DNA of 64,000 bases. Source: Spizellomyces punctatus DAOM BR117 (lineage: Eukaryota). Position numbers and translations under genes: made by a program. The stretch lies in the NCBI GenBank assembly GCA_000182565.2, contig KQ257465.1. The stretch is one strand, 5' to 3'. How positions within the stretch are numbered: the stretch's first letter is position 1; every line of letters begins with the position of its first letter. The notes under the pieces were generated by a model. The model was not told the DNA's origin. It saw only the letters and a program-made list of their open reading frames with translations, and did not search any database. Positions 1 to 63,969 of this stretch are shown here, in pieces.

Positions 1-643
1 CTAACGTTGATAGGAGAGTCTCGTCTACTTATTAGTATCAGAAGCAAAGTGAAACTTGAAGGTTTAAACAAAGGCCCGCGAAAGATAGTTCAGCCAGATG
101 GCCCCCGGTTGGCTCCGAGATCAACCTCGCGTCGCTGCGTCATCAGTATTGGCTGCGTGACTCATAAAAGTTAAATTTCGTTGCAACAGAGAAATATAAT
201 ACGTAAAAACATAAAAAACATATGCCTAAAGATCCAGTCAGATGATGTGATTCAAGAGAGAATTGCCGGATGGCCGACGAAAGGGGAACATATGAAAGAT
301 CGTCAGGCTATGGATTGAAACTTGTTGTGAGGATCTGGAAACAGCTAAAGGACTGATAGCAGAGGCCAGGCCCCTCAAGAGAGGATTATCCAAAGTTTTC
401 TCCTGCTGTTCGTGTTGGCGGAGCGTTTCTTCCAATCAAGACTCAATGATGCTGCTGGTTAGGGTTAGGGTTGGTGTAAATTCTTATACAATCATCAGCA
501 TTCCATCAGTTTCATGTGCCACGCGTCTCATCCAATCAAAATGCTTTACTGCTGACATTGTCCCCCTTTCCGATCCTCAAAAAAACATTTCCAGCCTTGC
601 TGAAATACTCTCCCCCCCCTCCCCCCAGCCGTGATGCTAAGAA

Positions 644-2288
644 ATGACGACTATAACTAACGATACCATGGACCTTCCCACCCTCAATGGCACCTCCAGC
701 CGCACTAGCGATACTGTGCAAATCGTCGATGTCGAACCAACAAGGAATCCGGCCAGCAGCGATAACGCCACAATGAAAGACTTCTATGTGATCGCTGCTG
801 GATATATATTCTTTACCCTTACCGACACAGCTGTTCGAATGATTGTCTTATTCGGATTGTGGCAGAGGCACTTTCAGGTACGAGCCATTGAGTTTAAGCA
901 AAACTCAAAGGTCGGCTCCTCACTCTCCATCACAGGCTCTCAATATTGCCATTATGTTTGTATCTTACGAGGCACTGGGCGTAGTTACGAACCTGTTTGG
1001 AGGCATTATGGGTTCTAGGTTAGGGCTCCGCTTTTGCCTCCTTCTAGGCCTGTTGCTTCAGCTTGTCGGAATCTCCCTTCTCTTCGTTCTGGACCGTGAA
1101 GATGTTTCGCATTGGTCGCAAGCAGCCGTGACGGGTTACGTGGTTTTTGCACAAAGCTTTTCAGGCGCTGCAAAAGATCTCGTCAAACTAGCCGGAAAAT
1201 CATCCACAAAGTTAGCCACCAAAGCAGCAAAAAATCGCAAGACCAATGCCGGTGACCCTCTTTTCAAACTTGTCGCATGGCTGACTGGGGCAAAGAACTC
1301 TGTTAAAGGCCTTGGATTTCTCATTGGTGCAGTTTTGATCAACTATGCTGGTCTCTGGCGAGCACTTTTGGTCATGGTTCTATTGACGCTCTTACCATTG
1401 CCGGGAGTATGGATGTGGTTGGATCCACGATTGGGAATCTCAAAGGATCAGCAACGGTTAACGCTGAGAGAGATATTTGACAAAGGGAGGGATGTTAATA
1501 TGCTGTCGTTGGCAAGGGTGTTCCTGTTCGGATCGAGAGATCTCTGGTTTGAGATTGCTTTACCCATCTGGTTACGGTATGTATGCATATCGGCTTCCTT
1601 CTGTCAGCTGAACATTTATCCCTTTTGCCCGACCAGTGCGCAATTTGATTGGAATTTTACCGCAAGTGGAGCTTTCCTGGCTGTGTGGATTATCATTTAT
1701 GGGGCTGTCCAAACGATTACCCCTCAATATATTCTAAAGCCGCTGAAAATGTACCCATTCAAACGGTAAGAGACGAAAGTCGGGCCGTTTACAGGACAAA
1801 AACTCACGCATTTGCTATAGGGCAAAGCTGCTTGTAATATGGACAGTTTTGCTCATGATCATTACTATAGCAATAGCTGCATACCTTACAGCTGTACGCA
1901 ACAAGCCAATCAGTGATCAGAAGGCCGCTACTCTCTCGATCATTTCGATCGGTCTGGCAGTTTTTGCTTTCGTCTTCGCGGTAAACTCTTCGATACACTC
2001 TTACTTAATTGTTGCATATGCGGCAAAAGATAAGATAGCCATCAATGTTGGCTTTTACTGTGAGTACCCATTCATTTGGTTTACAAGAAGAACTTCGAAA
2101 TTAAGTTCCCAATGCTTCATCTAGATTGCGCAAATGCGTTAGGTCGATTGACCGGAACTTTACTGTCTGGTTTTATGTTCCAATATTACGGTATCTGGGT
2201 TTGTATCTGGACGTCTGTGGGCTTTCTAGCCATCTGCACAGTTATCACAGCATTCTTTCGGGATGTGAAAGACGCGAACACTGAGTAG
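644..2288 (+). CDS. arsJ: ArsJ-family MFS organoarsenical (1-arseno-3-phosphoglycerate) efflux permease, 5 exons
   Basis: Introns 878-935, 1577-1636, 1766-1820 and 2060-2124 (all GT..AG) join the ORFs in frame. The spliced protein carries ArsJ-like motifs FTLTDTAVRMIVL, YEALGVVTNLFGG, SGAAKDLVKLAGKSS, LTGAKNSVKGLGF, ARVFLFGSRDLWF, VFAVNSSIHSYLI and GFYYCANALGRLTGTLLSG. Confidence 0.9.
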
Positions 2289-3636
2289 AATAACATTAAA
2301 AGTAACTACCACTTGAGAAATGTGCATGGGAGAGCGTACCGTTCTTGTCCCAAAAAGACGGCTTATTGCTCCCCACAAAGCAAATAAATGCTTTTGGGCT
2401 TAATATTACATTTAACACTAGCGCAACATGGTCAATGCATGCTCAAAGAGTATACTACCGCATTGCGACTCTGTGCATGTGTAGCATCAGTGATCAAGAA
2501 AAAATTCAGATGCAACTCAAGTTGCGGGTCACCCAATGTTGACATGTCCAACAGTCTTGGCGCGATATCTAAGTTGCACAAAAAGAAAGCAAGCAAGATA
2601 GCACGGCAAGATCGGCAAACTCAACAGAGGTGCCCAGATCGAGTGGCAACCGACGTATGGCCTATAAAAGTGTCGGGTAAGCTTCTGGTAATATAAATGA
2701 AGCAGATAATCGCAGCAGCGTGGGTCAGAGTGTGAATACAAATGTAGTCGTCCCGGCCAAAGCCATTCCGATAATACATGCTTTAAACCATCATTCCCAT
2801 TGCTGGCGAAGTATGCGCTATATAGCAACTACTGACCTTTTGCACAGGTGCGAGACCTGGATGTCGCGCCCTGGCCCACCACTCAACGTTAGGCATGTAT
2901 CAGATCTAAAGAGACAAGAGACGAAAATACACCTGTTAGAACCCATTTCTTCTCTTTGCGGGTTGAATGTGCGACCCAAATAATGCTCAGTTGAAAAAGA
3001 ATTTTCCGCTCATTCGGCAAATGGGAGATATCCCGCCTCGGTATTAGCATGGATAAACCATCACTGCACTTTTAAGTTCTACACTGCTGACGACCCGACG
3101 TTTGCTTACCTTGTGCGTGCTTCATAGCCGAACAGATTTAACTAGAAATACGGAAAATATAAGAATTAATCCAAGTTATGCCACGAACTCAGCTGTTGCA
3201 AACAGCTCCAGTGATCATCAATATCTTGTCAACAGAGACTGTTCAGGATTTGATAGTACTTTTTGATAATCATTTCACTCTGACATGTTCAGCCCAATTG
3301 CCAACCAAAACAACATACCTGCACACGATTTGAAGAACTGCACATCCTCGAAATCGCCCTTCCTTTTATTTTCAGTCCAGCAGTGGCGCAGGTGTCACGA
3401 GCGGGGCGCATTCATTCCAGTCACATGATCCTGGTCAAATGCTGTTGTGGGAGGGGATACTGAGAAACAACAGGGCCTGGAAGAGTCCAGGATCTTAGGG
3501 ACGAAGGTAGTTTCCGGAGATAGGGAATTTCTATTCCTATGCATGCTCATAATCTAAGGTCTATCTACAGTGTGTTCCTTGTCCAATACCATAAAGAGGA
3601 TTTATGCAAACAACATCCTATACGGACCTTCACAAC

Positions 3637-4832
3637 TTATTTGATGTGATACGGACATGAACTAACATCCCACGCTTCATCGTGCCACTTCGCATATAGA
3701 GCCAGTGCATGATCATCTGTCCAGCGCAGCATCATCCGAAATATAATAAGTTGTCTAGAGACCTTTAAGGCGGTACCCGTAGTAACAATGCTTACCTAGT
3801 AACCGGTTGGCTTTTATAAACATGACTTCATATGGATGGAAGGTCATTTCTGCAGAACACTATGAGCATTATATCGCGTACAATTATGATTTCCGGGCCA
3901 CCCACCATAGTATCCTTTCGGAAGGTTTGGATCATCATGAGTGCAGTGTGTTCCGTAGTTTGGGGATGTATGATAGCTCGTCATTAGCACATCTACGCCA
4001 TATCCAGCATTTCGGATGTCTTGCGTCAACTGCACTTCCCCTCTCATCACGGCATCATGCATATTCGTCCAGCACTGCATTGACCCCGCAGCGGCATTGA
4101 AGGCGTCACGATCCATTGCCAGCACCTGACTTTGGACGTGCGGTCGTGGTCGACAATTATACGTTGTCCCAACCAACTTGACCCTCTCGTTCAACCGACT
4201 GAGCAGCAGGTCCGTCCAGCAGCCCTTCGTGTATGTTGGCATGAAAGGTCCACGGACAGAGGCGTTTATCATCACAAACCGACGGTATCTGCGATTTAGT
4301 TGCTTTTCCAGCATTTCGACCCCAATTTTGAAGGACCCTATATCGTAACATCTAAAGGGTGCACAAGATCAGCGCTTGCTGTAAGCAATAAAGACAGCAC
4401 GCCGACGAACGGACTTATTTTCTCGCCGAATGATATGGATGTTTGAACGCTCAGGAAAACGTATTCCTTCGTCAACATGCCCGTTAAGGATGAATAAATA
4501 ATCTACATTAGACTGTAGGCCATGCCGAAGGAAGAATTGAAGATTGTCGGTCTGGACAGGAACTTGCGGACCCTTTACACTTGCGAGCGGTTTCCGGTGA
4601 GTCTAGAGATGGTAGTTTCCTGTGGTTTTGAGTGCTTTCCTCACCGGAACTCCGTATCCGCTTTCGAACTCGTACCATCATAGTAGATGTACACGACTAG
4701 AGTATCGCTCTCACTTGACTTGCGATTCACAATACCCAAACTTTCTTGACGCAGAGGGTCTGCAAACCAGACAAGCCCTACAACTGTTGCGGCGATAAAG
4801 AGTAAGATGATAGAATAGCGAGGACGACCCAT
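3637..4832 (-). CDS. Type II membrane protein, putative glycosyltransferase-like, multi-exon
   Basis: N-terminal TM anchor (YSIILLFIAATVVGLVWF). Spliced motifs LVVYIYY, NLQFFLRHGL, RENKCYDIG, INASVRGPFMP, VKLVGTTYNC, PHVQSQ and HPYEVMFIKANR. The function is inferred. Confidence 0.6.
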
Positions 4833-6312
4833 CGTGGACTGGGAAGGAGCTGGAGTTGCGCCGATTCCATCGGCGCCGGACAGGTTGGATTACTATTCCT
4901 GTGTATCTACTGGTTTCGAACACGCCAGGGCACGTGGGATTACAGTAGCACGAATCTATCAGCGCTATTAACAGCACATTGTTCGCTATTCTGAAATGTG
5001 GGCGACTTCTTGGGCTTACGGGCAGGCCCCTTCATGTTGGACATGGAAACAGTGTCACCTCATGCATCTATTCACGCTCCTTCGATGAATAAATACTTAC
5101 ACATCTACGTTGGAAAACGACTTACGGGCAGGACTCTCCATGTTGGACATAGGAACAGTGTCGCACACATGCACCTATTCAAGCTCCTTCGATCAACTTA
5201 CCTGTTGTGTTGGCAAAATTGAAACATATCATACATCATTGTACCCACTAGATGAATAAAGCACCTTGCTGGGGCGGGAAAGTTTGTCCGTTATAAAAGA
5301 AATCGGACTACGACGATGACAATACTCGTGCGACCCATATAACTTCGGCTCTATCGTGCAGTGCAATGGATTAGAATTAAACCGTCCGGCCACACGTATA
5401 GAAGTTGTATTCGGCTTGAAGCAATCCATATAAGCCACATGTGCATCACACATAGCTGGTATCATCAAAGTCATCCGGAAAGGCTGTGAAAATAGAAAAC
5501 ATATTAGCACATCATAATGCGCTTCCTCTACAGTAAAGTGTCGACAGTGCAATCTTACCATTGAAAAATTTGGTGTCAACAAGCCTTTCGTCAAACGATT
5601 TCTGTTGTTTTCCGGTAGGAGCAACGGTAGTGTCATCTAATGAGCTACCAGTGTGTCCTCTCGACGATCGTGTTCCATAAACAAAGGCAGCAGGTGTGTT
5701 TTCTTCAACCCGCATTGCATCCGCTTCAAACTCGAAGTCTTCCTACGTAATATCTCATGAGCATTGTGTAATCCTTGATTTATACTTGAAAACGAAACCG
5801 CATATCCGCAGCCGTTCTTTTTTTTTTTTGATCTTACATCCATCTCGCTCGCATTCCGTCCGCTCATCCTTCCTTTGGTACTATATCTCCTCCGCTTTTG
5901 AACGGTGCCAATGATGCGATCGCCTTTGTGATTTCCCTGATATACTCGATTTGTACCCTCTGCCTGCCTATCGTTAGAGTGATATAGGTGATTCCCTTTC
6001 TGATCTTTGCACGGTCCAAGAGAGCCTCCTGTGCCACAGTAAGCTGCAGGCCTTCGTCACTTGTCGTATAGGAGCTCGAGCAGAGTTCTAATTCATCGTC
6101 TTCTCTTGAACTTGACGATGGAGGAGATGCGGAGCGACTGTGCTTCGAAGTGGTTATGATGGCGGATGAGCAGGGTGAAGGTCGCCTCTCTCCGAAAGGA
6201 CAGCTTTTGATGACATGAGGTGCTGCATGATATGGCTGTGCCACCGTGGGTATCATGTCATTCCTGGACGGCTGCCTGCTTCCTATCCAGTTCACGCGAA
6301 GTTTAGATCGAT

Positions 6313-29753: not shown

Positions 29754-31069
29754 TCATTTGCGGGGATCCCAGGTGGGGTTGACCCTCAACTTCACACGGT
29801 CGTTGTTGGCAATGTCAGAAAAGTCCACGTACTTGAAAGTCGTTTCGGCGGCTTGGCTACCATCTGGATTCGTTTTATGGTCATCATGAACTACCAGCAG
29901 TCCCTGTGGGAATTTGGTTCCCAAGCCGGTGGAGACGACAGCAAGGCCGTCAGTCTCAGTCACTTCGTCGATATTGTTACCCGCCTTAACAGTGAAGGAA
30001 AAAAGATACTTGTGGGGGGCTTTCCTCTCATAAACGTTGTATGCGCTGATGCCTTGGACGGAGACGAAGATATATCCCTCGTCCTGCGGAGTCGAATTGC
30101 GTGTCAAAATGGTGTGCAGCTTCAGTCATTGCTGTGAAACCAACCTTTTCTTTGCCATAAAATAGTGATACACCTTCAACATCTGGAACCAGATGCCCTC
30201 CATTTGCAGTGTCAACGGAATCAACCAAGGTTCCCTTGGTACTTCCGTTAGGTTCAGCATCATACTTCCACAGTCCTTTGTCCTCCTCGCCGACGAACAA
30301 CCATCCATTATCCTTGTCAGCCACACACCCCTCAACCTGGCCTCCATTGCCCGCTTTCCAACGACGAACCAGTTTAGATGTGAGGCTGCGGCCCTTCGCG
30401 AAAATCTCATATTGGAGGTACTCGGAAGTTTTCGAGTTGATGAAGACTACGACAACACGTTGGTATTAGGTTATGACTTCTTGACGGGGGTGTCCAACTC
30501 TCGTGACATACCATACTGCTTGCCACTTTTTGGACTCTTGTACTCGCAACTTCCATATACCTTAAACCCGTCTGGCGTTGGTTGCGTTCCACCTCGAATC
30601 TCCTCAAGCCGCCCCTTCTCGTTAATCTTCCACATACAGATGGTGTCATCGGTTCGGCAGGCCGCGATAGCAATGTCAATTTTCTCAGAATCAAATTCTA
30701 GGTCATAGATTACATCAACGTTGTCGGGCCTGCCAGCTGAGACGAATTGCAGTGGCTATACATAGGAAGAAGATATCAAAGGATCATCCAATTAGAAAAC
30801 TAATCACTAGGATGCAGCGTGCACACCTTGCCGTCCAAATCAAAGACATGCAGACCTCCATCTGCCTTCTCTTTGGAGGTTGTAATCACGACGGACTTGG
30901 CCGTGTCTTTTTTGTGAATCCAAATGGCGGGATCGTCACCGTCAATCCCAGCAGGTCCTGTCTCAGCCTTGGGAACAATTTCATATGGAGTTTGCGGAGC
31001 CGCCAAAGGAGCAGCGCGCGCTCCACATATGAGAGGAAGAAGAATCAGAAGGTTGGTCAACTTGGTCAT
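29754..31069 (-). CDS. Secreted beta-propeller phytase (PhyC-type 3-phytase)
   Basis: Signal peptide, then [75 protein letters not shown] and [11 protein letters not shown]. Confidence 0.92.
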
Positions 31070-31169
31070 GATTGCAGTATGAGGACTTTTGGCGAGACAG
31101 ATGAGGTTGACAATGCAGATATTTAAAGAAGAAACGGAGGAGGGCTTTGGAACTGCGCTTAACCTAATG

Positions 31170-31385
31170 CACGTGTTAGAAACCCACGTAATGGGGGGGA
31201 AGCTTTTTGTTTTTTTCTTGATCACAGCCGTCTGTGCCAATAAAGGACGACGATCTCAGCACGACATCCTACGATGTTGTTGGCGATCACAACATTCTGT
31301 TCAAAATCGACAGCGAGGATCTCATATGCACGTGGGTCTTGCCTTTGTAAGTAACTTGTAAGTTTAATTCACTGTTATCCACGTG
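31170..31385. promoter_or_regulatory. Cluster of three CACGTG E-boxes (Pho4/NUC-1-like sites) upstream of the phytase
   Basis: GCACGTGT (core 31170), GCACGTGGG (core 31329) and CCACGTGC (core 31380) lie 100-320 bp upstream of the phytase ATG. Confidence 0.6.
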
Positions 31386-45690: not shown

Positions 45691-46907
45691 TCTCCCTTCA
45701 CCGCAGGCCAGAGCCAGATGCTCTCGGTCAGTTTATCTGCCTGGAAATGGGGCTCTGATGGGCCTGAAGGACAGGTCTAGGAGTAATTTTGCGATAGGTG
45801 GTTTTGACAGTTCCAAGCTAGTGACAGATGCAGGCAACAGAACAACTGTACACAGAGGCCAAGCGACAGATGCTGGAACAAGAAGCTCTTGGAGACTGAT
45901 GGCAGCTCGGGGACGGCAAAGTGCCAAGCGTTGAACGTTGTTTTTGGCGTGTGGGAAACAACAAAAAAGCGGTCTTTACGAGTACTCATCATCAAATGGC
46001 CTAAGCACATCGTGATGAATGTGGCCTGTGATGGACTGTGCCACCTGCGGGTTTTCAGGACGCTCTCAAAAGGAGACTCTGAACGCAATTGCTTTTTAAT
46101 GCCGATGATGGCGGTTTGGAATTAGCATTTTTGTAGCTCTGGTGTGTGCCTATCCCATTGGCCGTGTACGGTTTCTTGCGTACTGCTGCTGGGGCAAACT
46201 TATTGTTGTCTACTGCATTCCTTGCACGAGCTACCAGCATCTCTTTTGATTTTCAGTTTTTCTTGAAAACCCTAGCACTTTTATGCTCTTGCCCTCCATG
46301 GAGGTTTTTTTAGCGACCATCCACTGGAATGCTCATATCATTGCAGTCAAACGTTGCAACATTTGTGATGATTGGGGAAGTTCTGGCAAGAAATATATCT
46401 CTTACTCTCGACTCCTCGCTGTCTCTGCCTCTCACCCAAATGTGACTTTTTGAAAAAGTAGCTTACTTCAATTTTGCCATCAACAATGTAAACACTGTCA
46501 CCCTCGGTTGCCTTGGGGTGATGAATCATACCAATCAGCACAAGTATTTTGCTCTTCAAAAGGATAAAGGAAATGTGTGTACCAATCATCATTCTGGAAT
46601 AGTACAAATGCATATTCCATGCAGAAAGAAAATATTCCAAATAAGAAATCACGTGGATATTCAATACTGTTATTTAGAAAAAAGAATATTCCTACTATTT
46701 GTTATTAGCCATAGGTTGTGAGGAGATGCCCTCAAATTACATCAAATTACATAAAATATGATCGGGCGACAACAGGAATTATCCTTGGGGAAACATTATT
46801 TATCATTTGGTGTTTGTTCTGCATAGAAACAGTCTTTGACTCCTGCAGTTGGAATATAAAAATACAAGGGAACGCAAGCATTCTTCCCTTGGTTTCATAT
46901 CACAAGT

Positions 46908-48824
46908 ATGGAGAAGCAAGTATCTCCACTGCTCCCAACAGTATCCAAAACTGTTGCGTATCGCAAAAATCCTGCATCTCACCGATATCATATGCGCTTG
47001 CCGGTATGGAGAACGCTCGCTCTCTTGCTGGTCCTTATCAACACGTACGCCATTCCCCGCTGTGGACTGTATCCTCTCTTCAACACCCAACTTGCTACGA
47101 GAAATTCGCAGTACAGACAAGCTGCAAATCCTACGGACAGTATCCCTCAGCAGCGTGAGTTTGCGCCAGCTGGGCCGAAAAGGTTTACTGCCGTCATTAC
47201 GTGGGTCAATGGTAGCGACCCGCTTCACCAGCAGATGCGCTCAATATACGCACGGGAGGCACCACATGTCAACATGGTAAATCGGTTCAGAGATCTCGGT
47301 GAATTGAGGTACACCGTGAGAAGTCTGCAAAAGTTTGCCAGCTGGATCAAGGAAATTCTCATCTTAACGAGCGATTATCGGAACGTGGAATATGGATCCG
47401 ATCGTGGACAGGTTCCAATATGGTTTGCAGAGGTGTCCTCTGAAAGTGAACCAGTACCTCCCGTACGAGTAATTCATCATGACGAGTTTTTTGCAAACGC
47501 TCAAGGGTCGCTGCCGACATTCAATAGTCTGGCCATTGAGAGCCAATTGGGGAATTTGCCAGGGCTCGATGAGGATGTGAGTGTGACCTGCTCCACTGTA
47601 CCGTCCGCTGATCCCATTGCTGAACAGTACTCTCGCAACAGATCATGTTATACTTTAATGACGATATTACCGTCGGGCAGGCACTCCAATCATCAGACTT
47701 TTACTCTCCCGAGTCCGGATTTGCTTTCGCCATTCAATCTGATCTGCAGGTCAGCGCCTTTGACCGGCCGCCTCGCATTGAATCTTCTCAAGGAGAGTGG
47801 CCCGCTCTTGACTGGTCCAACTATTTACTCAGTGAGTATTGTAATGGAATCTTGGCTGTTCTGCTCTCAAGCCTAACTGTATCATTTTACTCCAGGTCAA
47901 AGATTTGGCAAACGACGACGGGGTTATGTCGCTCACAGCGTTAAAGCCTTTGCGACCCCTCTATTACAAGAACTGGCCTCAGATTTCCCCTCAGCCTTCC
48001 GACAGACGTCTCATCACAGGTTTCGCGGCATCGGTCACGACGTACACACTCCTTTCATGGCCGTGCACTATGTCCTGGAAATGCATCGCGAGAGTGTGTT
48101 GAAATACTTTGTAAATAACGTGCTAGATGAGAACGGAGATGGTGTTGTGGATGATCAGGAAGTGGAAGCATTGCAAAAATTGTCCTGGGACGCAGACTTG
48201 GTGAACGGGAACGGAATTCCTGTGCGGGAAAATCGGAGGACATGGGACTCGAGGAATGGCTACCCCCACATGACAGTCCAGCCAGAGGCAGGGAATGCAT
48301 GGACATACACTGATGGCACCCCACCTTCCCTCCGCAAATGCAGCTTTTCGCTTAACGTTTGCCTTCCGTCAGTGAGATCAGCTCAAGCGATTTTGCGCCA
48401 CATTGGCCGCGAACACATTGCTTGCGGAGACTGCCTCCTGAATACCATGGCCCGAGCTTCGGGCGACGCTGGAATCGACTCGTACCTCGTGCAAAACACC
48501 AAGCGCAACGTCAGCTCAAATCCGCTAGCTGAAGTCTCAAAATACAAATATTCGCTTACCTCACTATCTCTGTCCTTCCTGAAGCTCGAAAACGACGACT
48601 GCGCGACATGGAGATCTATGGAACTTCTGGCGGAAAATCCAACCGCAATAATATGTTTGAATGACGATATTGGCAGACCAGGTGCCGTGAACGGCATAAA
48701 GAGTATGCTGGAAGTGTTCTTTGCACGTCTAGGATTGAAGAATGACGGAGCCGCCATCAAAGAATTTGACGCATGTGCGCCAAGGAGTCGTCCAAGGAGA
48801 CCTATTCTCAGCGATTTTAGTTAG
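46908..48824 (+). CDS. Stealth-family sugar-phosphotransferase (XPT1/GNPTAB-like)
   Basis: CR1 FTAVITWVNGSDP, CR2 RFRDLGELRYTVRSL..LPTFNSLAIES..LYFNDD, CR3 YVAHSVK..HRFR, CR4 ICLNDD, and an N-terminal TM anchor. Confidence 0.9.
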
Positions 48825-57916: not shown

Positions 57917-60456
57917 TCAAGTGGGACGGGGAGAAGGAACAGGTGGCACCGTAACCTGAGGGGGCACAGTGGTCAAGTGTATAGCGGTTCTTGTAGTCGA
58001 CAGAGTATTCGTCGGTGTGATGCATTTTTGGGTATCCGCAGGAGCCCAGATACCTGCCGGCCCACAAAGAGCCGTTTGATTTCCTACCAAAGGCGAAGGA
58101 CAGGGGCCCGTGGCGTTCTGTCCCAGTGGCGTGCGCGGGAACACATCCGAGACGCAAGTCGACTCCTTGCTCCAAACACACTGCGACGTATCGACGGTAG
58201 TCCATTTGCCACTTGGAAGGCAGCGTGCCGTTTGATTGCCACTGAAGAGAACGGGACATGGAGCACTTGCGATTCCATTGAAAGGCGTTGCGGGAAACAC
58301 GTCAAATGCCGGGCATCCTATGCGATAGCACTGGGAGGTGTCGGGGGTAGCCCATATACCATCTGGATTACACCGAGCCGTCATGTTACCGGCAAAACCG
58401 TTTGAGCAAGATTGAGTTGCGTTCTGTGTGTAATTTTAGACCAAAGCATATGAGAAATAGCCATAATTGACAACTTTGTACAGTGGATCTGATAAACAGT
58501 ATCACGAGGAATAGTTTAGATACGTTACCTGTCCAGCCAGTTTACTCGTCCATCCTGCCGCTGTCGGGCAGACAACGATCGGAGGATTGCATGTGGATAC
58601 CACCTTTCCCCACAAGCCGTTCGATAGACACTCAGCGGTAACATTGCCGTTCGCATTACCATTTGCACAGGGTATCGTAGCACTTGCGTTAGCTGGGGTT
58701 GCAGTCCAGTTTCCAATATAATTCACCCCGTCTTGCGACATCATAGTGGCTGCGGAACACTTGATGTCCAAGGGCCACCCGCAGGCGCCAAAACCTTCCT
58801 GACACTGGGAAGGACTACAGTATTCGGACGACGCGGCGCACTGACCTGCCTTACCACAGCAGGCGGTTGGCCCACAGGAAGTCTGATTTACACTTGTGAA
58901 GCCGCAGACTGAAATGGTACCGTATTTAGCATAGGTAATGCGCGACGAGCAATCGGATCATCTGAGAAGATACCTGCGGTCTTGTCAAATGTCTGGGGGC
59001 CACAATCTCCGTAAATTGGATTACATGTGGTGCGATCACAAAAACTGCGGAAAGTCCCGCATTGGCCAATAGATGTATCACAGCACGTTCCTTTGGGACA
59101 TCTCCTATTTTCCGCAGTCGCGTAAGGACCACATTCTAAAACAAAAGTAATTAGCAACATGATTCTATGGTGTTTTCAAAGCCTAACGAACAGGTTGGCA
59201 GGCAAATGCTTACGATGATTCTGGTTGAAAAATTGAGTACATTGGCCTGGTCCAAAGCCTATCTGACATCCCGTGGGTGCGCCATTTTGGGAAGGCTTTT
59301 GTGGATCCGCTAGCATGCAATCAGCAAAGCCCAATCCACAAAGGCCCTGTCCGTTGCAGCAGCCGGTTGGACAAACAGCAAAGTTGGCAGAAGTAGCGCC
59401 ACATACTAAAATTGGCGCAATTGTGAGATTTACGTTCAAAGTTCGAGAAAAAAGAAAGCAAGTATATTGAGTGATAACACATAAAAGTTACTTACTAGCT
59501 TTTGGGTCGACAGTCCTGTGTGTACAAGGTCCATATCCGTAGCGGCAGTTGTCAGGACCGCAAAAGTCGGGACCTGAGCCGCAAAGTCCTTTCAAGCTGC
59601 AGCATTGACCATTCGGACATAACGGGGTGGCTGCCGCAGGCCCGCATTGTTCGGCTTGAGGCGATGCAGCGTAAGCATCAAAGGTCATCGAGGAGTTTGC
59701 CGGTTGCAGAGGAGGAACATAGGGCAGGTTGGGGATTGTGGGCAGGAGGATGGTTTCAACTGCATCTTGAACGGAATTTTCGCCGCAAATCCGAGTTCTG
59801 TAATACGTAAAGTGGGTAGTTAGAAAGTAGTAAATAAGCCATGAACCACAACAAACTACATGTAAGAGGTTGCCATACCTCAAAATGTATAACATCTGCT
59901 GGGCATTGGCATCGACCGGTTTCCTCAACAGGGTTGCGGCGAGGAAGCAACCACAAGCAAACTTTTTGTCCAGTACATCGAAAATGTTAGCCTTTGGATC
60001 GATTTTCGACAAGACATCTTTGACCTGCTTGACACAATTTGCACCGGACGCAGCGTCATTTGCACAGGGGAGTGCAGACGAAAGAACGAGATGGCGGAGG
60101 ATATAAGCAATGTTGGCAGTAGGACCCAGCATAAAATCCATGGGACAGTCCTTCTGGACCTGAAGGTTAAGGGCCTGTAAGGACTGCTGACAAGCGCCCT
60201 TGGGATCGCAGAAAGCCGCGCGTTCTGCGTCTTGATTCAATGAGGAGAGGTTTCCAAAAACAGCCGCGCGGCTGCACTGCAGCTGCATTCCCAGGGCGGC
60301 AGCGCAAGCAGGCGTGGGAACCTTGAACGCGGCGAGATCATTCGGAGTAAAGAGGGCAAAGGAAGACGGGATAGCAGCGATGGAAACGTCATTTGCTGCC
60401 GCCAATACGAAAGCTACGAGGACGGCGGCGGCCTGCCGTGCTGTGAAAAAAAGCAT
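57917..60456 (-). CDS. Secreted non-catalytic Cys-rich protein: N-terminal Cys domain + 4 hevein/CBM18-like + 4 HormR-like repeats + P/T tail
   Basis: Signal peptide; CAAALGMQLQC..FCDPKGACQQSL..LPCANDAASGANC; CG..CP..CC...G.CG units x4; C..W/FP.T......CP....G..TA.C...G.W...D.S.C units x4. Confidence 0.8.
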
Positions 60457-60822: not shown

Positions 60823-63800
60823 ATGCGCATCCTGGCAGTATCCCTGGCTCTGTTGCTGGTGGTGGGCGGGACCACTGGGTCACCGTCTAGCACGAACTAC
60901 AACAAAACAAAGAACAAAGTGCACTTGTCAAAGAGATGCGCTGCAGGTCTCATCACTTGTGGAGAGGACTGTTTCGACCCGGCTTTGGGCGAATATCACT
61001 GTGTAAACGCTCCAGATGGAACACCTTTGTTGGTTCAAGGCCCCGGGTATAACCCCAACGATCGTAAGTGTCTCATGGGAGGGGAAAGGGTTTGGTCTGT
61101 GGGTTACCTTTCGTCCTCCTTCCGCCTTCCGACTGGTTCTCCCCTCAAAGTCACTAACTTATCCACATATCTTTACGCACAAAGCCGATGCTGAGATACT
61201 GCCCGCGGATATCACGGACATTGGAACTCCTACTGGCCAAACGAAGAAGATTACAATGACCAACAGATGTCCGCACAAAGTGTGGCCGGCTCTTCAGGGA
61301 AAATTCGGCGATCCTGTCCCGGCCGACGGAGGATTTGGAATGGGACCGGGTACGACTGTAACCGTTCACGTTCCATATAATTGGGAATCCGGACGGATCT
61401 GGCCGCGGACGGGCTGCAAGATCAACAATGGAAAAGTCTTTTGTGAAACAGGCACGTGCGGCATCAAAGAAAACGGCTACGGCGTGCAATGCAAGGGCAA
61501 TGGAGGAGTGCCGCCATACACCATCGTCGAATTTACTTTGCACGGGTACAAAAACCTTGATTACTACGACTTGTCTCAAGTAGATGGTCACAACATTGGA
61601 ATCGCTGTCGCAGTTGTGGGAGGTGATAAAATCAACGATCCCGATATGGTTGAGCCCAAATTTGACTGCGGAAACGCGGCGTGCAGGATGGACATTTCCA
61701 AATACTGTCCCCCCGAGTTGGCCTTTATGAGTAGTGACGGGAAAAGAATCGTGGCATGCGGGAGTATCCATAACGCTGTGGAAGACCTCGTCCAGAGGAC
61801 GTTGCATCCTGACCCTTTGAAGCCCCTCTTTGACGATCAAGTCAAGAGGTCGCTTGTTGGATGCACCTGTGACCCAACAGGAACTTACAACCACTGCTAC
61901 GCAAAGGTCGATAAGCGTCCTGAGGCCGAGGGGAAGCGATGCTATGTGGAGGACTGGCCTTCTGTCAAGGAGCCCGGCCCATGGCCTACCCGATACGACA
62001 AAGTCTTCAAAGACAGGTGTCCGCGTGAGTTCCTCGTGCACTTTGGGTGGCCATTCTGGATGTTCTTGGGAACATCGTCTGCCTTCCTTTACCTGTATTC
62101 ATACTTTTTGACAAATCATTGTAATCTTCAGTTGCTTATTCGTGGCAGTTTGACGACTTTTCCTCGACGTTCAATTGCCGAAACGCCGATTACCATATAA
62201 CATTCTGTCCAGCGGCCGAGTGCGGGAAGGAAGCAAATGGAAAGGAGTGTCCCAACAATGCATGCTGCTCTTCATTCGGGACCTGTGGAGTCACAGAGAC
62301 AGAATGCGGTGACGGGTGTCAGTCCAACTGTAACAGCTTGGACGATTTCCCTGGCCCTGGAACATGTGCGTCACCTCCTTTGACCATTGTTGTCGGGTAC
62401 TATAGCAATACGGCGTACGGACGAGGGGAAAACCTGCCCAACTGCAAAGGGACGTTGAAAGCGATGGCCCCGGAAGACCTCCGACCGACCGGTTTTACTC
62501 ATCTGAACTATGTAAGGTTACTTATTGATGTGGATTCCACAGAGCATAATCAGATCTGTGTGAGTCTCTCTCTGACAGACTCGTCTTCCACATTTAGGCA
62601 TTCGGTGCGATATCCGTTGACTTCAAGCTTACCACCACTCGAAACGAGGATGACGATCTCATCAAGAGGTTCAATGGACTCAAGAGTTCGAACGGGAACT
62701 TGAAGACCTTGTGGTCAATTGGTGGATGGGCCTTCAATAATCCAGGATCTGGGACGGAAACACGATTTTCCGACATGGTCTCGTCTCCGGCCAATCGAGC
62801 CACGCTCATTGGCGATATTGTGCGGACAATCCCTGGACGTGGATTCGACGGAATTGACTTTGTACGTTGATTCGTCCTGTCGTCAATGCTCATCACTCTC
62901 TACTGTCTTAACAGTGCCCCTTTCTTCTGCGTCTTGGAATTAATAGGACTGGGAGTATCCAGGCCCGGCGCGGGGTGGTAGGGATTCTGACCCCGCAAAC
63001 TTTGTGCAATTTCTCAAGGAACTCCGTCAGGCTTTTGACCGCAGCAATCTCAAACTGATCATTACTGTCACGGCTCCCCCAACTCAATTGAACCTTGCTG
63101 AATATGATCTGAAGACGTTAAAAGAAAATGTTGACTGGATCAACTTGATGACCTACGACTTTCATGGAGCCTCTCCCGCCGTTAACCAACCGGCGAATCC
63201 CGTCGACAATCGGCCACCACCCAATGCGTGGGGCAGCGAATCCTTGGGCGTCCAGCCGCACGCTAACAAATTTGATATCGACAATGCTCTGCGAGCGTAT
63301 CTCAAAGCCGGTGTTCCACGGGAAAAACTTGTCATGGGAATTGCGTTCTACGGTCGTTCGTACACGTTGATGCGTCCTGATTGCATCGACCCGGGATGTC
63401 CGTATTCCAGTGCCGGGAAACCGGGCGTGTGCACTAACGTCCCTGGGTTCATCAGTTACTCCGAGGTGCAGGCCCTCGATCGGACGCAAACTGCGGTAGA
63501 CAAAACTAGCATGAGCGCCGTAGCAAGTTCTGGTGATCAATGGATCTCGTAAGCAGACGATCTGATCGTTGTTCTAGATGTGGATTTAAGTTAACCAACT
63601 TTCACTAACTCACCATGCCGTCCTTTATAATATGCACCTCCGGCCTTTCACAGATATGAAAACCACGAAACAATTCAAGCAAAGATGGGCATCGCCGCCA
63701 AACAATGTCTCCCAGGTGTCGCCATTTGGTCTCTCGACCTCGATCCGGATGGTGTATTGCTTCTCTCTGTTACAGGCAATGCCAATACAGAGACTCCCAA

Positions 63801-63969
63801 TACAGGGTTTTGTACCGCTGACGGCCGCTGGAGAACGACCGCAGCTGGGCAGACGAGTTCCTACAATTGCCCATACGGAGAAGGATCGATAGTGCGACAC
63901 TGCGGCTCAGACGGCCGCTGGGGAGACGTGGTCAACAATTGTGCCGATGTCCATACTGGTGCGTGCTAG
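60823..63969 (+). CDS. Secreted thaumatin-like + CBM18 + GH18 chitinase fusion with C-terminal HormR-like module
   Basis: Signal peptide; thaumatin ([51 protein letters not shown]); CBM18 ([14 protein letters not shown]); GH18 ([26 protein letters not shown] across an intron, [32 protein letters not shown]). Confidence 0.9.

Follow-up and report, generated by a model that had tools for sequence, protein, structure and literature searches.

An intron-containing gene of the ArsJ transporter family in the chytrid Spizellomyces punctatus

Structure and transcription of the gene

The arsJ-like gene is located on the plus strand at positions 644–2288 of the window (the whole stretch of 64,000 nucleotides analysed here, from contig KQ257465.1 of Spizellomyces punctatus DAOM BR117), and it encodes a predicted protein of 468 amino acid residues. 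Based on our own exon model, the gene is intact, with five exons (644–877, 936–1576, 1637–1765, 1821–2059 and 2125–2288) and four introns of 58, 60, 55 and 65 nt, all four of them GT..AG. The joined coding sequence of 1407 nt runs from the ATG at 644 to the TAG at 2286–2288, which is its single stop. An earlier sequence-only reading of this DNA had proposed an intron-containing fungal homolog of ArsJ; its limits were exact, and the proposal was borne out by the placement of all five exons on the NCBIfam model NF033734 (MFS_ArsJ equivalog).

The closest relative was SpCBS45565_g07185 of Spizellomyces sp. ‘palustris’ (P0001, annotated as a hypothetical protein), which comes from another species or strain. 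The spliced window protein aligned with it without gaps over 458 amino acids, at 95% identity, and the alignment spanned all four exon junctions. Exon 1 (644–877, 78 codons) contains a second in-frame ATG at 668, which corresponds to the annotated start of P0001. Residues 1 to about 44 form a polar N-terminal tail that the bacterial profile lacks, and the ArsJ core begins after it, profile positions 1–30 being matched by residues 45–74. Intron 1 (878–935, 58 nt, phase 0) follows codon 78. Exon 2 (936–1576, 641 nt) encodes about half of the transporter; it matched profile positions 35–232 (E 3.5e-57, 194.4 bits) and was 96% identical to P0001. As intron 2 (1577–1636, 60 nt, phase 2) has no in-frame stop, the case for its removal is made by homology, since P0001 and the ArsJ profile (232 to 235) both run on here with no inserted residues. 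Exon 3 (1637–1765, 129 nt; profile 235–266, E 2.4e-08) is followed by intron 3 (1766–1820, 55 nt, phase 2), which is lacking in a chytrid-like metagenome contig (L083). Exon 4 (1821–2059, 239 nt; profile 279–347, E 2.4e-18), intron 4 (2060–2124, 65 nt, phase 1) and exon 5 (2125–2288, 164 nt, including the TAG; profile 350–390, E 2.1e-10) complete the gene.

Splicing of intron 4 was observed directly in RNA, as 13 reads of run X6 with 8 different start positions joined position 2059 to position 2125. The RNA depth on exon 5 was about 10, with about 6% of that run read. The RNA support thus comes from one run of low depth, under a non-arsenate condition, and covers the 3' third of the gene; introns 1–3 lie outside the read cover and are based on homology, the restored reading frame and the splice signals. 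No reads of the metatranscriptome X7 aligned to the gene. DNA contigs from runs X1 and X2, which carry the same organism label, had the same sequence and kept the introns wherever these were spanned. The gene is intact, spliced and transcribed.

Membership of the ArsJ family

The five exons matched NF033734 in order over profile positions 1–390 of 392, with E-values from 0.0013 to 3.5e-57 and a bit-score sum of 352.8, which upholds the earlier statement that the motifs are colinear along the whole length. Every other NCBIfam family scored at most 18.5 bits on the window exons. The runner-up model, bile_salt_MFS, reached 17.8 bits on exon 2; on the full-length relatives, where no family competed with ArsJ, its scores did not exceed 38.6 bits. 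Pfam gave only weak MFS_1 matches on the window protein. P0001 scored 400.9 bits on NF033734 against a curated cut-off of 400, with rival families at 34 bits or less. The scores of 21 eukaryotic members ranged from 341.6 to 408.4 bits, while two bacterial proteins scored about 560. On an HMM of our own making, trained on 100 sequences of the bacterial clan, the window protein scored 414.7 and P0001 412.2. The whole-protein score of the window protein on NF033734 is accordingly expected to lie close to the cut-off.

When the window protein was compared with the bacterial ArsJ clan, the overall identity was 43% (168/391). Of the 140 columns with a conservation of 95% or more among the 100 bacterial rows, 108 hold the bacterial residue in the window protein; the other 32 are changed, mostly conservatively. 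The charged residues among these columns are all kept, save for an R in place of K at window position 252. Among those kept are D61, R65, E90, K158, D159, K162, K166, K198, K202, K261, R272, R279, D280, H394, D405 and R422.

Transporters of the major facilitator superfamily (MFS) have about 12 transmembrane helices, arranged as two six-helix halves. A Kyte-Doolittle scan of the window protein, too crude for counting helices, gave 10–15 hydrophobic windows depending on the threshold. For red-algal arsJ, 12 transmembrane segments are given in the supplement of PMC9812998. A sequence search for relatives of solved structure returned no match at E ≤ 0.01. Judged by these profile and residue comparisons, the window protein is a true member of the ArsJ family.

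Relatives, genomic neighbourhood and origin

The sequence-only reading had named grouping with a generic eukaryotic MFS clade as one outcome that would speak against its proposal; the protein fell instead within a eukaryotic ArsJ-family clade. In a FastTree phylogeny of 199 rows, the window protein, all 46 named eukaryotic rows and 52 unnamed rows formed a group of 99, which was split with a support of 100 from all 80 named bacterial rows and 20 unnamed ones. The same split was recovered by IQ-TREE (LG+C20+F+G4, 91 rows) with an SH-aLRT of 100 and a branch of 1.41+0.32, which puts a distance of about 1.7 substitutions per site between the two groups; the trees have no root and draw on a limited sample of bacteria. 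In both trees the window protein was sister to the S. ‘palustris’ protein (support 100), and the chytrids, Glomeromycotina and Blastocladiomycota clustered together inside the eukaryotic group. In the IQ-TREE phylogeny the Fungi formed one group (95), as did the Spizellomycetales (95).

Among the best 120 matches, 34 were named fungal proteins (12 from chytrids, 17 from Glomeromycotina and 5 from Blastocladiomycota), and none of these 34 was from Dikarya. The Rhizophagus clarus protein has already been named ArsJ by NCBI. The position and phase of intron 1 were common to the chytrid-like contig L083 and to two Paraglomus-like contigs (L081 and L100). The gene is most likely an orthologue in a eukaryotic ArsJ clade that comprises zoosporic fungi, Glomeromycotina, Blastocladiomycota, Capsaspora, algae and various protists.

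The neighbours of the gene are ordinary eukaryotic genes, for example Sec39/NBAS, WD40, RPL5 and RPL14 genes, and its GC content (0.461) and GC3 (0.488) fall within the values spanned by 14 coding stretches nearby. Eukaryotic neighbours of similar base composition argue that the gene is not contamination. Together with the introns and the RNA-spliced intron 4, they agree with the sequence-only reading, which had argued against contamination from the four introns.

A recent horizontal transfer from bacteria into the chytrid, or contamination of the assembly, could be suspected from the first description of the family in bacteria and from the 45% identity between bacterial ArsJ and window exon 2. 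Against it stand the four introns of spliceosomal type, one of them confirmed by RNA, the same sequence in DNA contigs of other runs, the eukaryotic flanking genes with their similar composition, the 34 named nearest relatives from three early fungal groups, the clustering of the fungi inside the eukaryotic clade, and the intron 1 common to Glomeromycotina-like contigs. We regard this explanation as extremely improbable.

The sequence-only reading had left the choice between a domesticated horizontal transfer and patchy retention. The shared intron 1 and the eukaryotic and fungal grouping fit an old gene that was patchily retained, and the trees favour such retention over a recent bacterial import, so that the former part of that proposal does not hold as a recent event. 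If the gene did come from bacteria, this would have happened before the early fungal lineages diverged, and within the fungi the gene would have been inherited vertically since before the chytrids and Glomeromycotina separated.

As the sequence-only reading had stated, no GAPDH gene was found in the window. No Gp_dh or PGK domain was detected by Pfam in the 112 ORFs of at least 110 aa in the 64-kb window. When 76 bacterial ArsJ-linked GAPDHs were searched against the window by tblastn, no real GAPDH match was obtained (best remaining E 0.018). The three strongest rows of that search (E 2.7e-33, and 1.8e-15 twice) fell on the ArsJ gene itself and not on a GAPDH, because one query ORF (locus L023) runs on into ArsJ. 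The stretch in which GAPDH and PGK are absent comprises 643 bp upstream and 61.7 kb downstream of the gene. No minus-strand ORF in window positions 1–643 fitted the beginning of a divergently oriented GAPDH or Zn2Cys6 gene.

For comparison, a GAPDH lay within 4 kb of arsJ at 76 of 80 bacterial loci; of the four without one, one had short flanks. A head-to-head GAPDH was present in three of the six distinct types of eukaryote-like metagenome contig with usable flanking sequence, and that of contig L095 scored 526.6 bits on NF033735 (ArsJ-associated GAPDH, cut-off 450). The chytrid-like contig L083 had no linked GAPDH or PGK in its 3.9 kb of upstream sequence. In protein searches with the L095 GAPDH and with a GAPDH exon of contig L102, the only eukaryote named among the 120 matches listed was a sea anemone, the others being bacterial or unnamed; both searches scored only the 8000 candidates sharing most words and are uninformative about fungi either way. 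GAPDH linkage is thus typical of the ArsJ family and not universal.

Proposed function and comparison with known systems

Taken jointly, the sequence comparisons make it fairly probable that the gene encodes a functional, nuclear-encoded MFS permease, an ArsJ orthologue from the eukaryotic clade inherited vertically within the fungi, which lowers cytosolic arsenate. The permease would do so by exporting pentavalent arsenic; its substrate, the direction of transport, its location in the membrane and an arsenate phenotype are all inferred. The exported form may be 1-arseno-3-phosphoglycerate (1As3PG), made when GAPDH takes arsenate instead of phosphate, or it may be free arsenate. Since no dedicated GAPDH lies within the visible 64 kb, the making of 1As3PG, if that is the substrate, would fall to an unlinked or glycolytic GAPDH. 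No functional study of a fungal ArsJ was among the papers listed in our literature searches.

Against this explanation count the lack of linked GAPDH and PGK, the lower NF033734 scores of the eukaryotic members, the 32 changed positions among 140 and the RNA support of low depth from one run.

With some 1.7 substitutions per site lying between eukaryotic and bacterial ArsJ, the substrate may have drifted. The eukaryotic or fungal branch of ArsJ might accordingly have shifted to another anion (phosphate or a phosphorylated three-carbon acid, for example), so that arsenate handling would be incidental or absent. This is suggested by the long branch, by the borderline scores on the ArsJ equivalog model, by the missing GAPDH and PGK in the window and upstream in L083, and by the dispute over which species ArsJ carries, described even for bacteria in PMC9601151. 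We nevertheless hold such a shift to be unlikely, as the strongly conserved bacterial positions are largely kept, the charged ones with the single exception at 252; disruption of an algal member of the eukaryotic group led to arsenate sensitivity, as reported in PMC7826186; and other eukaryotic members stand head-to-head with a GAPDH of the ArsJ type, as in L095.

An Acr3 protein of S. punctatus is listed in the supplement of PMC7826186, from which it follows that the canonical arsenite route probably coexists in this fungus and that ArsJ may be redundant. A relic that is decaying or has lost its function, with Acr3 doing its work, would be in line with that record and with the low RNA depth at the 3' end. 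The open frame of 468 codons with correct splice signals, the gapless alignment at 95% identity with the sister-species orthologue, the kept residues of the family and the orthologues retained in three fungal groups among the best 120 matches make a relic very improbable, and a working ArsJ-family permease remains our preferred reading.

The gene is largely ordinary, as it belongs to an old eukaryotic ArsJ branch that is already present in published trees, and the gene itself is no discovery. A broader proposal is tentative, and we rate it somewhat below an even chance: the early-diverging fungi, both zoosporic and arbuscular-mycorrhizal (Glomeromycotina), may have kept an ancestral export of pentavalent arsenic without a dedicated linked GAPDH, an export that appears to have been lost in Dikarya, to judge by the 34 named fungal matches. 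Such a GAPDH-unlinked route would act on free arsenate, or on 1As3PG from the glycolytic GAPDH. If this were true, an ArsJ transporter would carry part of the arsenate handling of chytrids and of the mycorrhizal symbiosis. The lineages bearing ArsJ include mycorrhizal fungi, which influence the arsenic uptake of plants. Arsenate export by a GAPDH-unlinked fungal ArsJ would also bear on the debate over the species that ArsJ transports, as set out in PMC9601151.

The sequence-only reading took ArsJ to be a bacterial protein, a premise since overtaken by the algal arsJ reported in 2020 (PMC7826186) and the eukaryotic group in a tree of 2023 (PMC9812998). Current fungal arsenic reviews still list ArsJ as bacterial (PMC12860867), and the common assumption is corrected here: ArsJ is not only bacterial, and it has an old eukaryotic branch that persists in early fungal lineages. 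The arsJ tree of 2023 (PMC9812998, Supplementary Fig. 14) shows a eukaryotic group with Spizellomyces sp. ‘palustris’, Powellomyces, Allomyces and Catenaria, as well as Gigaspora, Diversispora, Glomus, Rhizophagus and Capsaspora; P0001 is probably its leaf TPX61762.1.

The green-algal ARSJ (Chlamydomonas Cre07.g354150) likewise belongs to the eukaryotic ArsJ group and is a nuclear gene with introns. The ArsJ-GAPDH-PGK neighbourhood and an arsenate-sensitive Chlamydomonas arsJ insertion mutant were published in 2020 (PMC7826186). The algal gene adjoins a bacterial-like GAPDH and a PGK-like gene (ArsJ-GAPDH3-PGK3, same source), whereas the window has neither. The green-algal proteins, represented in our trees by Volvox, Edaphochlamys and Parachlorella, are longer (608–619 aa) and fall in a subclade other than the fungal one.

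The bacterial ArsJ (NF033734; Pseudomonas aeruginosa DK2, Chen et al. 2016), with which the window protein shares the proposed role of As(V) efflux, is matched colinearly over its full length. The bacterial gene stands in ars operons directly after the ArsJ-associated GAPDH (76/80 loci), and the two bacterial proteins scored about 560 bits, where the chytrid orthologue reached about 400; the fungal protein adds the N-terminal tail of about 44 residues, and its gene the introns. In Vibrio cholerae, ArsJ (VC1071) was reported to be the main As(V) resistance determinant, largely independent of its GAPDH (PMC9601151).

PvGAPC1 and PvOCT4 of Pteris vittata are proposed to follow a like logic, in which GAPDH arsenylates and a transporter moves the product (as described in PMC7826186 and PMC9454679). 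PvOCT4, however, belongs to an unrelated transporter family and is convergent and non-homologous, its role in the plant being sequestration in the vacuole. The Acr3/Acr2 route of yeast and other fungi also detoxifies arsenic, but Acr3 exports As(III) after arsenate has been reduced. Acr3 is of a protein superfamily other than that of ArsJ, which handles pentavalent arsenic without reduction, according to PMC12860867.

Gene model and family assignment

The gene model was built from window positions 1-3600 using the sequence and its stop-to-stop frames, and the exons were joined by script. The gene lies on the plus strand and consists of five exons (644-877, 936-1576, 1637-1765, 1821-2059 and 2125-2288), giving a joined CDS of 1407 nt (468 codons and a terminal TAG); the interval 644..2288 proposed by the sequence-only reading runs exactly from the start codon to the stop codon of this model. 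A second in-frame ATG at 668 falls where the closest relative, the Spizellomyces sp. 'palustris' orthologue P0001, is annotated to begin, so the true start is either 644 or 668. The four introns are 58, 60, 55 and 65 nt long, and all begin with GT and end with AG. From the ∼6% that was read of RNA run X6, which bears this organism's label, 249 reads were placed on 500-2500, and 13 of them, with 8 start positions, skipped exactly 2060-2124 with GT..AG ends, indicating that intron 4 is spliced and that the 3′ third of the gene (RNA depth ∼10) is transcribed. Introns 1-3, upstream of the only intron reached by X6 reads, are predicted from their splice signals, the reading frame restored by their removal, the ungapped match to P0001 and the unbroken ArsJ profile over the junctions. 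Since intron 2 (60 nt) is stop-free in frame, its removal is supported by homology alone. The contigs from DNA runs X1 and X2 contain whichever introns they span. Just past the ArsJ stop, at 2376-2500, X6 depth rose to ∼50, five times that of ArsJ itself, with first mates nearly all on the minus strand, which suggests that a different transcript with higher expression ends here; the ORFs at 2388-2983 and 2532-2828 had no Pfam match.

When the exon translations were scanned singly against NCBIfam, the MFS_ArsJ model NF033734 (length 392, curated cut-off 400 bits) was the top family for all five, in profile order: exon 1 matched profile positions 1-30 (E 0.0013, 18.0 bits), exon 2 35-232 (E 3.5e-57, 194.4 bits), exon 3 235-266 (E 2.4e-08, 33.6 bits), exon 4 279-347 (E 2.4e-18, 66.5 bits) and exon 5 350-390 (E 2.1e-10, 40.3 bits). 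The proposal of a fungal ArsJ homologue with motifs colinear over its whole length is borne out by this order across positions 1-390. The separately scanned exons sum to 352.8 bits; no rival NCBIfam family exceeded 18.5 bits on any of the five, and Pfam gave weak MFS_1 similarity only. Over 458 aa that span all four exon junctions, the window protein and P0001 align with zero gaps at 95% identity, and full-length P0001 scored 400.9 bits on NF033734, compared with 341.6-408.4 bits for 20 other full-length eukaryotic relatives and ∼560 bits for two bacterial ArsJ proteins. With a home-made HMM of 100 bacterial-clan sequences, the window protein scored 414.7 and P0001 412.2. By these scores the window protein is a clear ArsJ-family member; like eukaryotic members in general, it falls just at the stringent 'equivalog' cut-off.

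Contamination was considered by scanning the 112 window ORFs of at least 110 aa against Pfam. The neighbours were ordinary eukaryotic genes, with finds that included Sec39/NBAS, a WD40 protein, the AHAS small subunit, RPL5, RPL14, a non-specific endonuclease, Stealth-domain proteins, thaumatin, and chitin-binding and GH18 domains. The ArsJ CDS has a GC of 0.461 and a GC3 of 0.488, within the ranges of 14 neighbouring coding stretches (GC 0.46-0.57, GC3 0.45-0.65). Contamination, against which the sequence-only reading cited the introns, was ruled out by these eukaryotic neighbours and the matching base composition. Domains noted in the stretches 46860-48821 (+), 57920-58435 (-) and 63631-63966 (+) comprise Stealth CR1-CR3 in two adjoining ORFs, hormone-receptor (HRM) domains in two ORFs, and the thaumatin, chitin-binding and GH18 genes, which lie close to the right end of the window. 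A beta-propeller phytase (PF02333) was found in three ORF pieces at 29757-31255 (-); the family is known mostly from bacteria, and this may be another gene of patchy eukaryotic distribution.

Distribution, phylogeny and descent

Exon 2 was searched against longer proteins, and the best 120 of 215 matches included 34 named fungal proteins: 12 from Chytridiomycota sensu lato (Spizellomycetales, Rhizophlyctis, Gorgonomyces and Gonapodya; 51-96% identity to exon 2), 17 from Glomeromycotina (46-57%) and 5 from Blastocladiomycota (49-54%), with none of the 34 from Dikarya, Mucorales or Zoopagomycota; weaker matches may lie below the best 120. The same 120 contained Capsaspora, two hemichordates, three green algae, five protist-transcriptome entries and two Verrucomicrobia ArsJ proteins (45% to exon 2). 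The Rhizophagus clarus protein is already named 'organoarsenical efflux MFS transporter ArsJ' at NCBI.

A set of 199 rows was assembled from the window protein, these 120 matches and 78 bacterial ArsJ proteins. The last were extracted from 80 genome loci, two of which were dropped for having <370 residues matched; bacterial sampling was limited to the 80 closest relatives of a single Verrucomicrobia protein, and the trees are unrooted, with no outgroup. FastTree separated 99 eukaryote-side rows (46 named eukaryotic, the window protein and 52 unnamed) from all 80 named bacterial and 20 unnamed rows with a support of 100. A subset of 91 rows (all named eukaryotes minus 7 of the 17 Glomeromycotina, 16 unnamed eukaryote-side, and 31 named and 5 unnamed bacterial rows) was analyzed with IQ-TREE (LG+C20+F+G4, quick search, SH-aLRT support), and the same split was recovered (support 100, branch length 1.41+0.32). 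Fungi formed one group of 32 rows (95), within which Blastocladiomycota (100), Glomeromycotina (93) and Spizellomycetales (95) were each one group, and the window and S. 'palustris' proteins were sisters (100). Bacterial sequences recruited by similarity to the fungal query all fell on the bacterial side. The phylogeny called for by the sequence-only reading places the protein in the ArsJ-family tree, but among eukaryotes and not nested in the sampled bacteria. Capsaspora forms a long branch, and in both trees the hemichordate ArsJ-like proteins P0065 and P0091 group with algal and protist sequences instead of Capsaspora and fungi, contrary to species relationships.

Intron positions in metagenome contigs were compared in window-protein coordinates. 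Intron 1, which follows codon 78 in phase 0, has an identical position and phase in the chytrid-like contig L083 and also in two contigs that match Paraglomus brasilianum best, L081 (93% in its longer segment) and L100. In L083, introns 2 and 4 are near, not at, the window positions and intron 3 is missing; Funneliformis-like contigs have introns at other positions. One exactly shared intron, together with a gene tree that tracks fungal groups, argues for vertical inheritance since before the split of the chytrid and Glomeromycotina-like lineages, and any bacterial origin of the gene would predate this fungus by far. Of the two histories first offered, domesticated horizontal transfer or patchy retention, the shared intron and gene tree favor patchy retention and speak against a surprising transfer.

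The premise that ArsJ is bacterial does not hold, as eukaryotic ArsJ is already in print (PMC7826186, PMC9812998). In its supplement, PMC9812998 gives an arsJ tree with leaves for Spizellomyces sp. 'palustris', Powellomyces hirtus, Catenaria, Allomyces, Gigaspora, Diversispora, Glomus, Rhizophagus and Capsaspora, and the legend of that tree argues against prokaryotic transfer. A 2026 fungal arsenic-efflux paper still counts ArsJ as a bacterial family (PMC12860867). Among the papers listed for ArsJ, judged by titles and abstract openings, no study of any fungal ArsJ was found; many of those under the bare name 'ArsJ' concern human arylsulfatase J. The window gene is a genuine ArsJ-family member, orthologous to a eukaryotic and fungal clade that is already in print, rather than a surprising transfer.

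Linkage to GAPDH

The known order ArsR, GAPDH, ArsJ was reproduced in bacterial loci L064 and L076, whose GAPDHs scored 552.7 and 570.3 bits on the ArsJ-associated GAPDH model NF033735 (cut-off 450); in L076, Acr3 follows ArsJ. Of the 80 bacterial ArsJ loci, 76 had a GAPDH-like ORF no more than 4 kb away; among the remaining four, one offers just 134 bp of upstream sequence. The sequence-only reading saw no GAPDH in the window, and the searches agreed: no Gp_dh or PGK domain was detected by Pfam in the 112 ORFs of at least 110 aa, and tblastn with 76 bacterial ArsJ-linked GAPDHs gave no real GAPDH match. The three top rows (E 2.7e-33, and 1.8e-15 twice) were rejected, because the L023 query ORF continues from GAPDH into ArsJ and matched the window ArsJ gene; the best remaining match had E 0.018. 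As a positive control, bacterial ArsJ found by tblastn the gene at 921-2249 alone. Only 643 bp upstream are visible, so a GAPDH partner could lie elsewhere in the genome. The L023 ORF (2822-5236, +; a Filomicrobium MAG contig) holds GAPDH and ArsJ in one stop-free frame of 805 codons, which could be a fusion protein or reflect a stop lost or misread; at the related locus L057 the GAPDH ORF is separate.

Six distinct types of eukaryote-like metagenome contigs had usable flanks. In three of them, ArsJ is placed head-to-head with an ArsJ-associated-type GAPDH on the other strand, and one or both genes contain introns (L095:6339-9059, also L094; L102:3207-5957; L124:209-1332); in L094/L095 the GAPDH scored 526.6 bits on NF033735 and ArsJ has an intron. 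No GAPDH was found in the other three (L082; the L088/L089/L090/L117 group; L083). The eukaryotic pair of ArsJ and GAPDH seems to persist in divergent orientation and not as an operon. In L083, ArsJ (3885-5554, +) has a divergent gene upstream with a fungal Zn2Cys6 DNA-binding domain (329-3667, -; 22.4 bits), which could, as a lead only, be a regulator. In protein searches with the eukaryote-contig GAPDHs, the matches listed were bacterial or unnamed plus one sea anemone, and were uninformative on a fungal ArsJ-type GAPDH; the anemone protein, P0242 (Actinostola sp., 707 aa), has GAPDH domains at twice normal length and was the second-best match of the L102 GAPDH exon.

Conserved residues and known ArsJ systems

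Among 140 alignment columns at least 95% conserved in 100 bacterial-side sequences, the window protein has the bacterial residue in 108, compared with 43% identity overall (168/391). All charged residues in these columns are kept bar one K-to-R at position 252, including the lysine- and aspartate-rich stretch 158-166, lysines 198 and 202, arginines 272, 279 and 422, and H394; the 32 changed columns are mostly conservative. This retention fits an unchanged anionic substrate. The N-terminal tail of ∼44 residues is polar and acidic, with no equivalent in the bacterial profile.

In the original model (Chen et al. 2016), ArsJ is said to export 1-arseno-3-phosphoglycerate formed by GAPDH. In V. cholerae, ArsJ is reported to be the main resistance determinant, largely independent of its own GAPDH, and appears to expel free arsenate (PMC9601151). 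Without a linked GAPDH, the cargo of the window ArsJ might be either compound, both versions being possible since glycolytic GAPDH is also described as able to form the arseno-compound (PMC9601151). An Acr3 protein is recorded for Spizellomyces punctatus (PMC7826186 supplement), and the canonical Acr3 route probably coexists with ArsJ in Spizellomyces. The algal ArsJ-GAPDH3-PGK3 neighborhood has been published with mutant phenotypes, and the Chlamydomonas arsJ insertion mutant, reported as arsenate-sensitive (PMC7826186), affects an ArsJ that belongs to the same eukaryotic group as the window protein.
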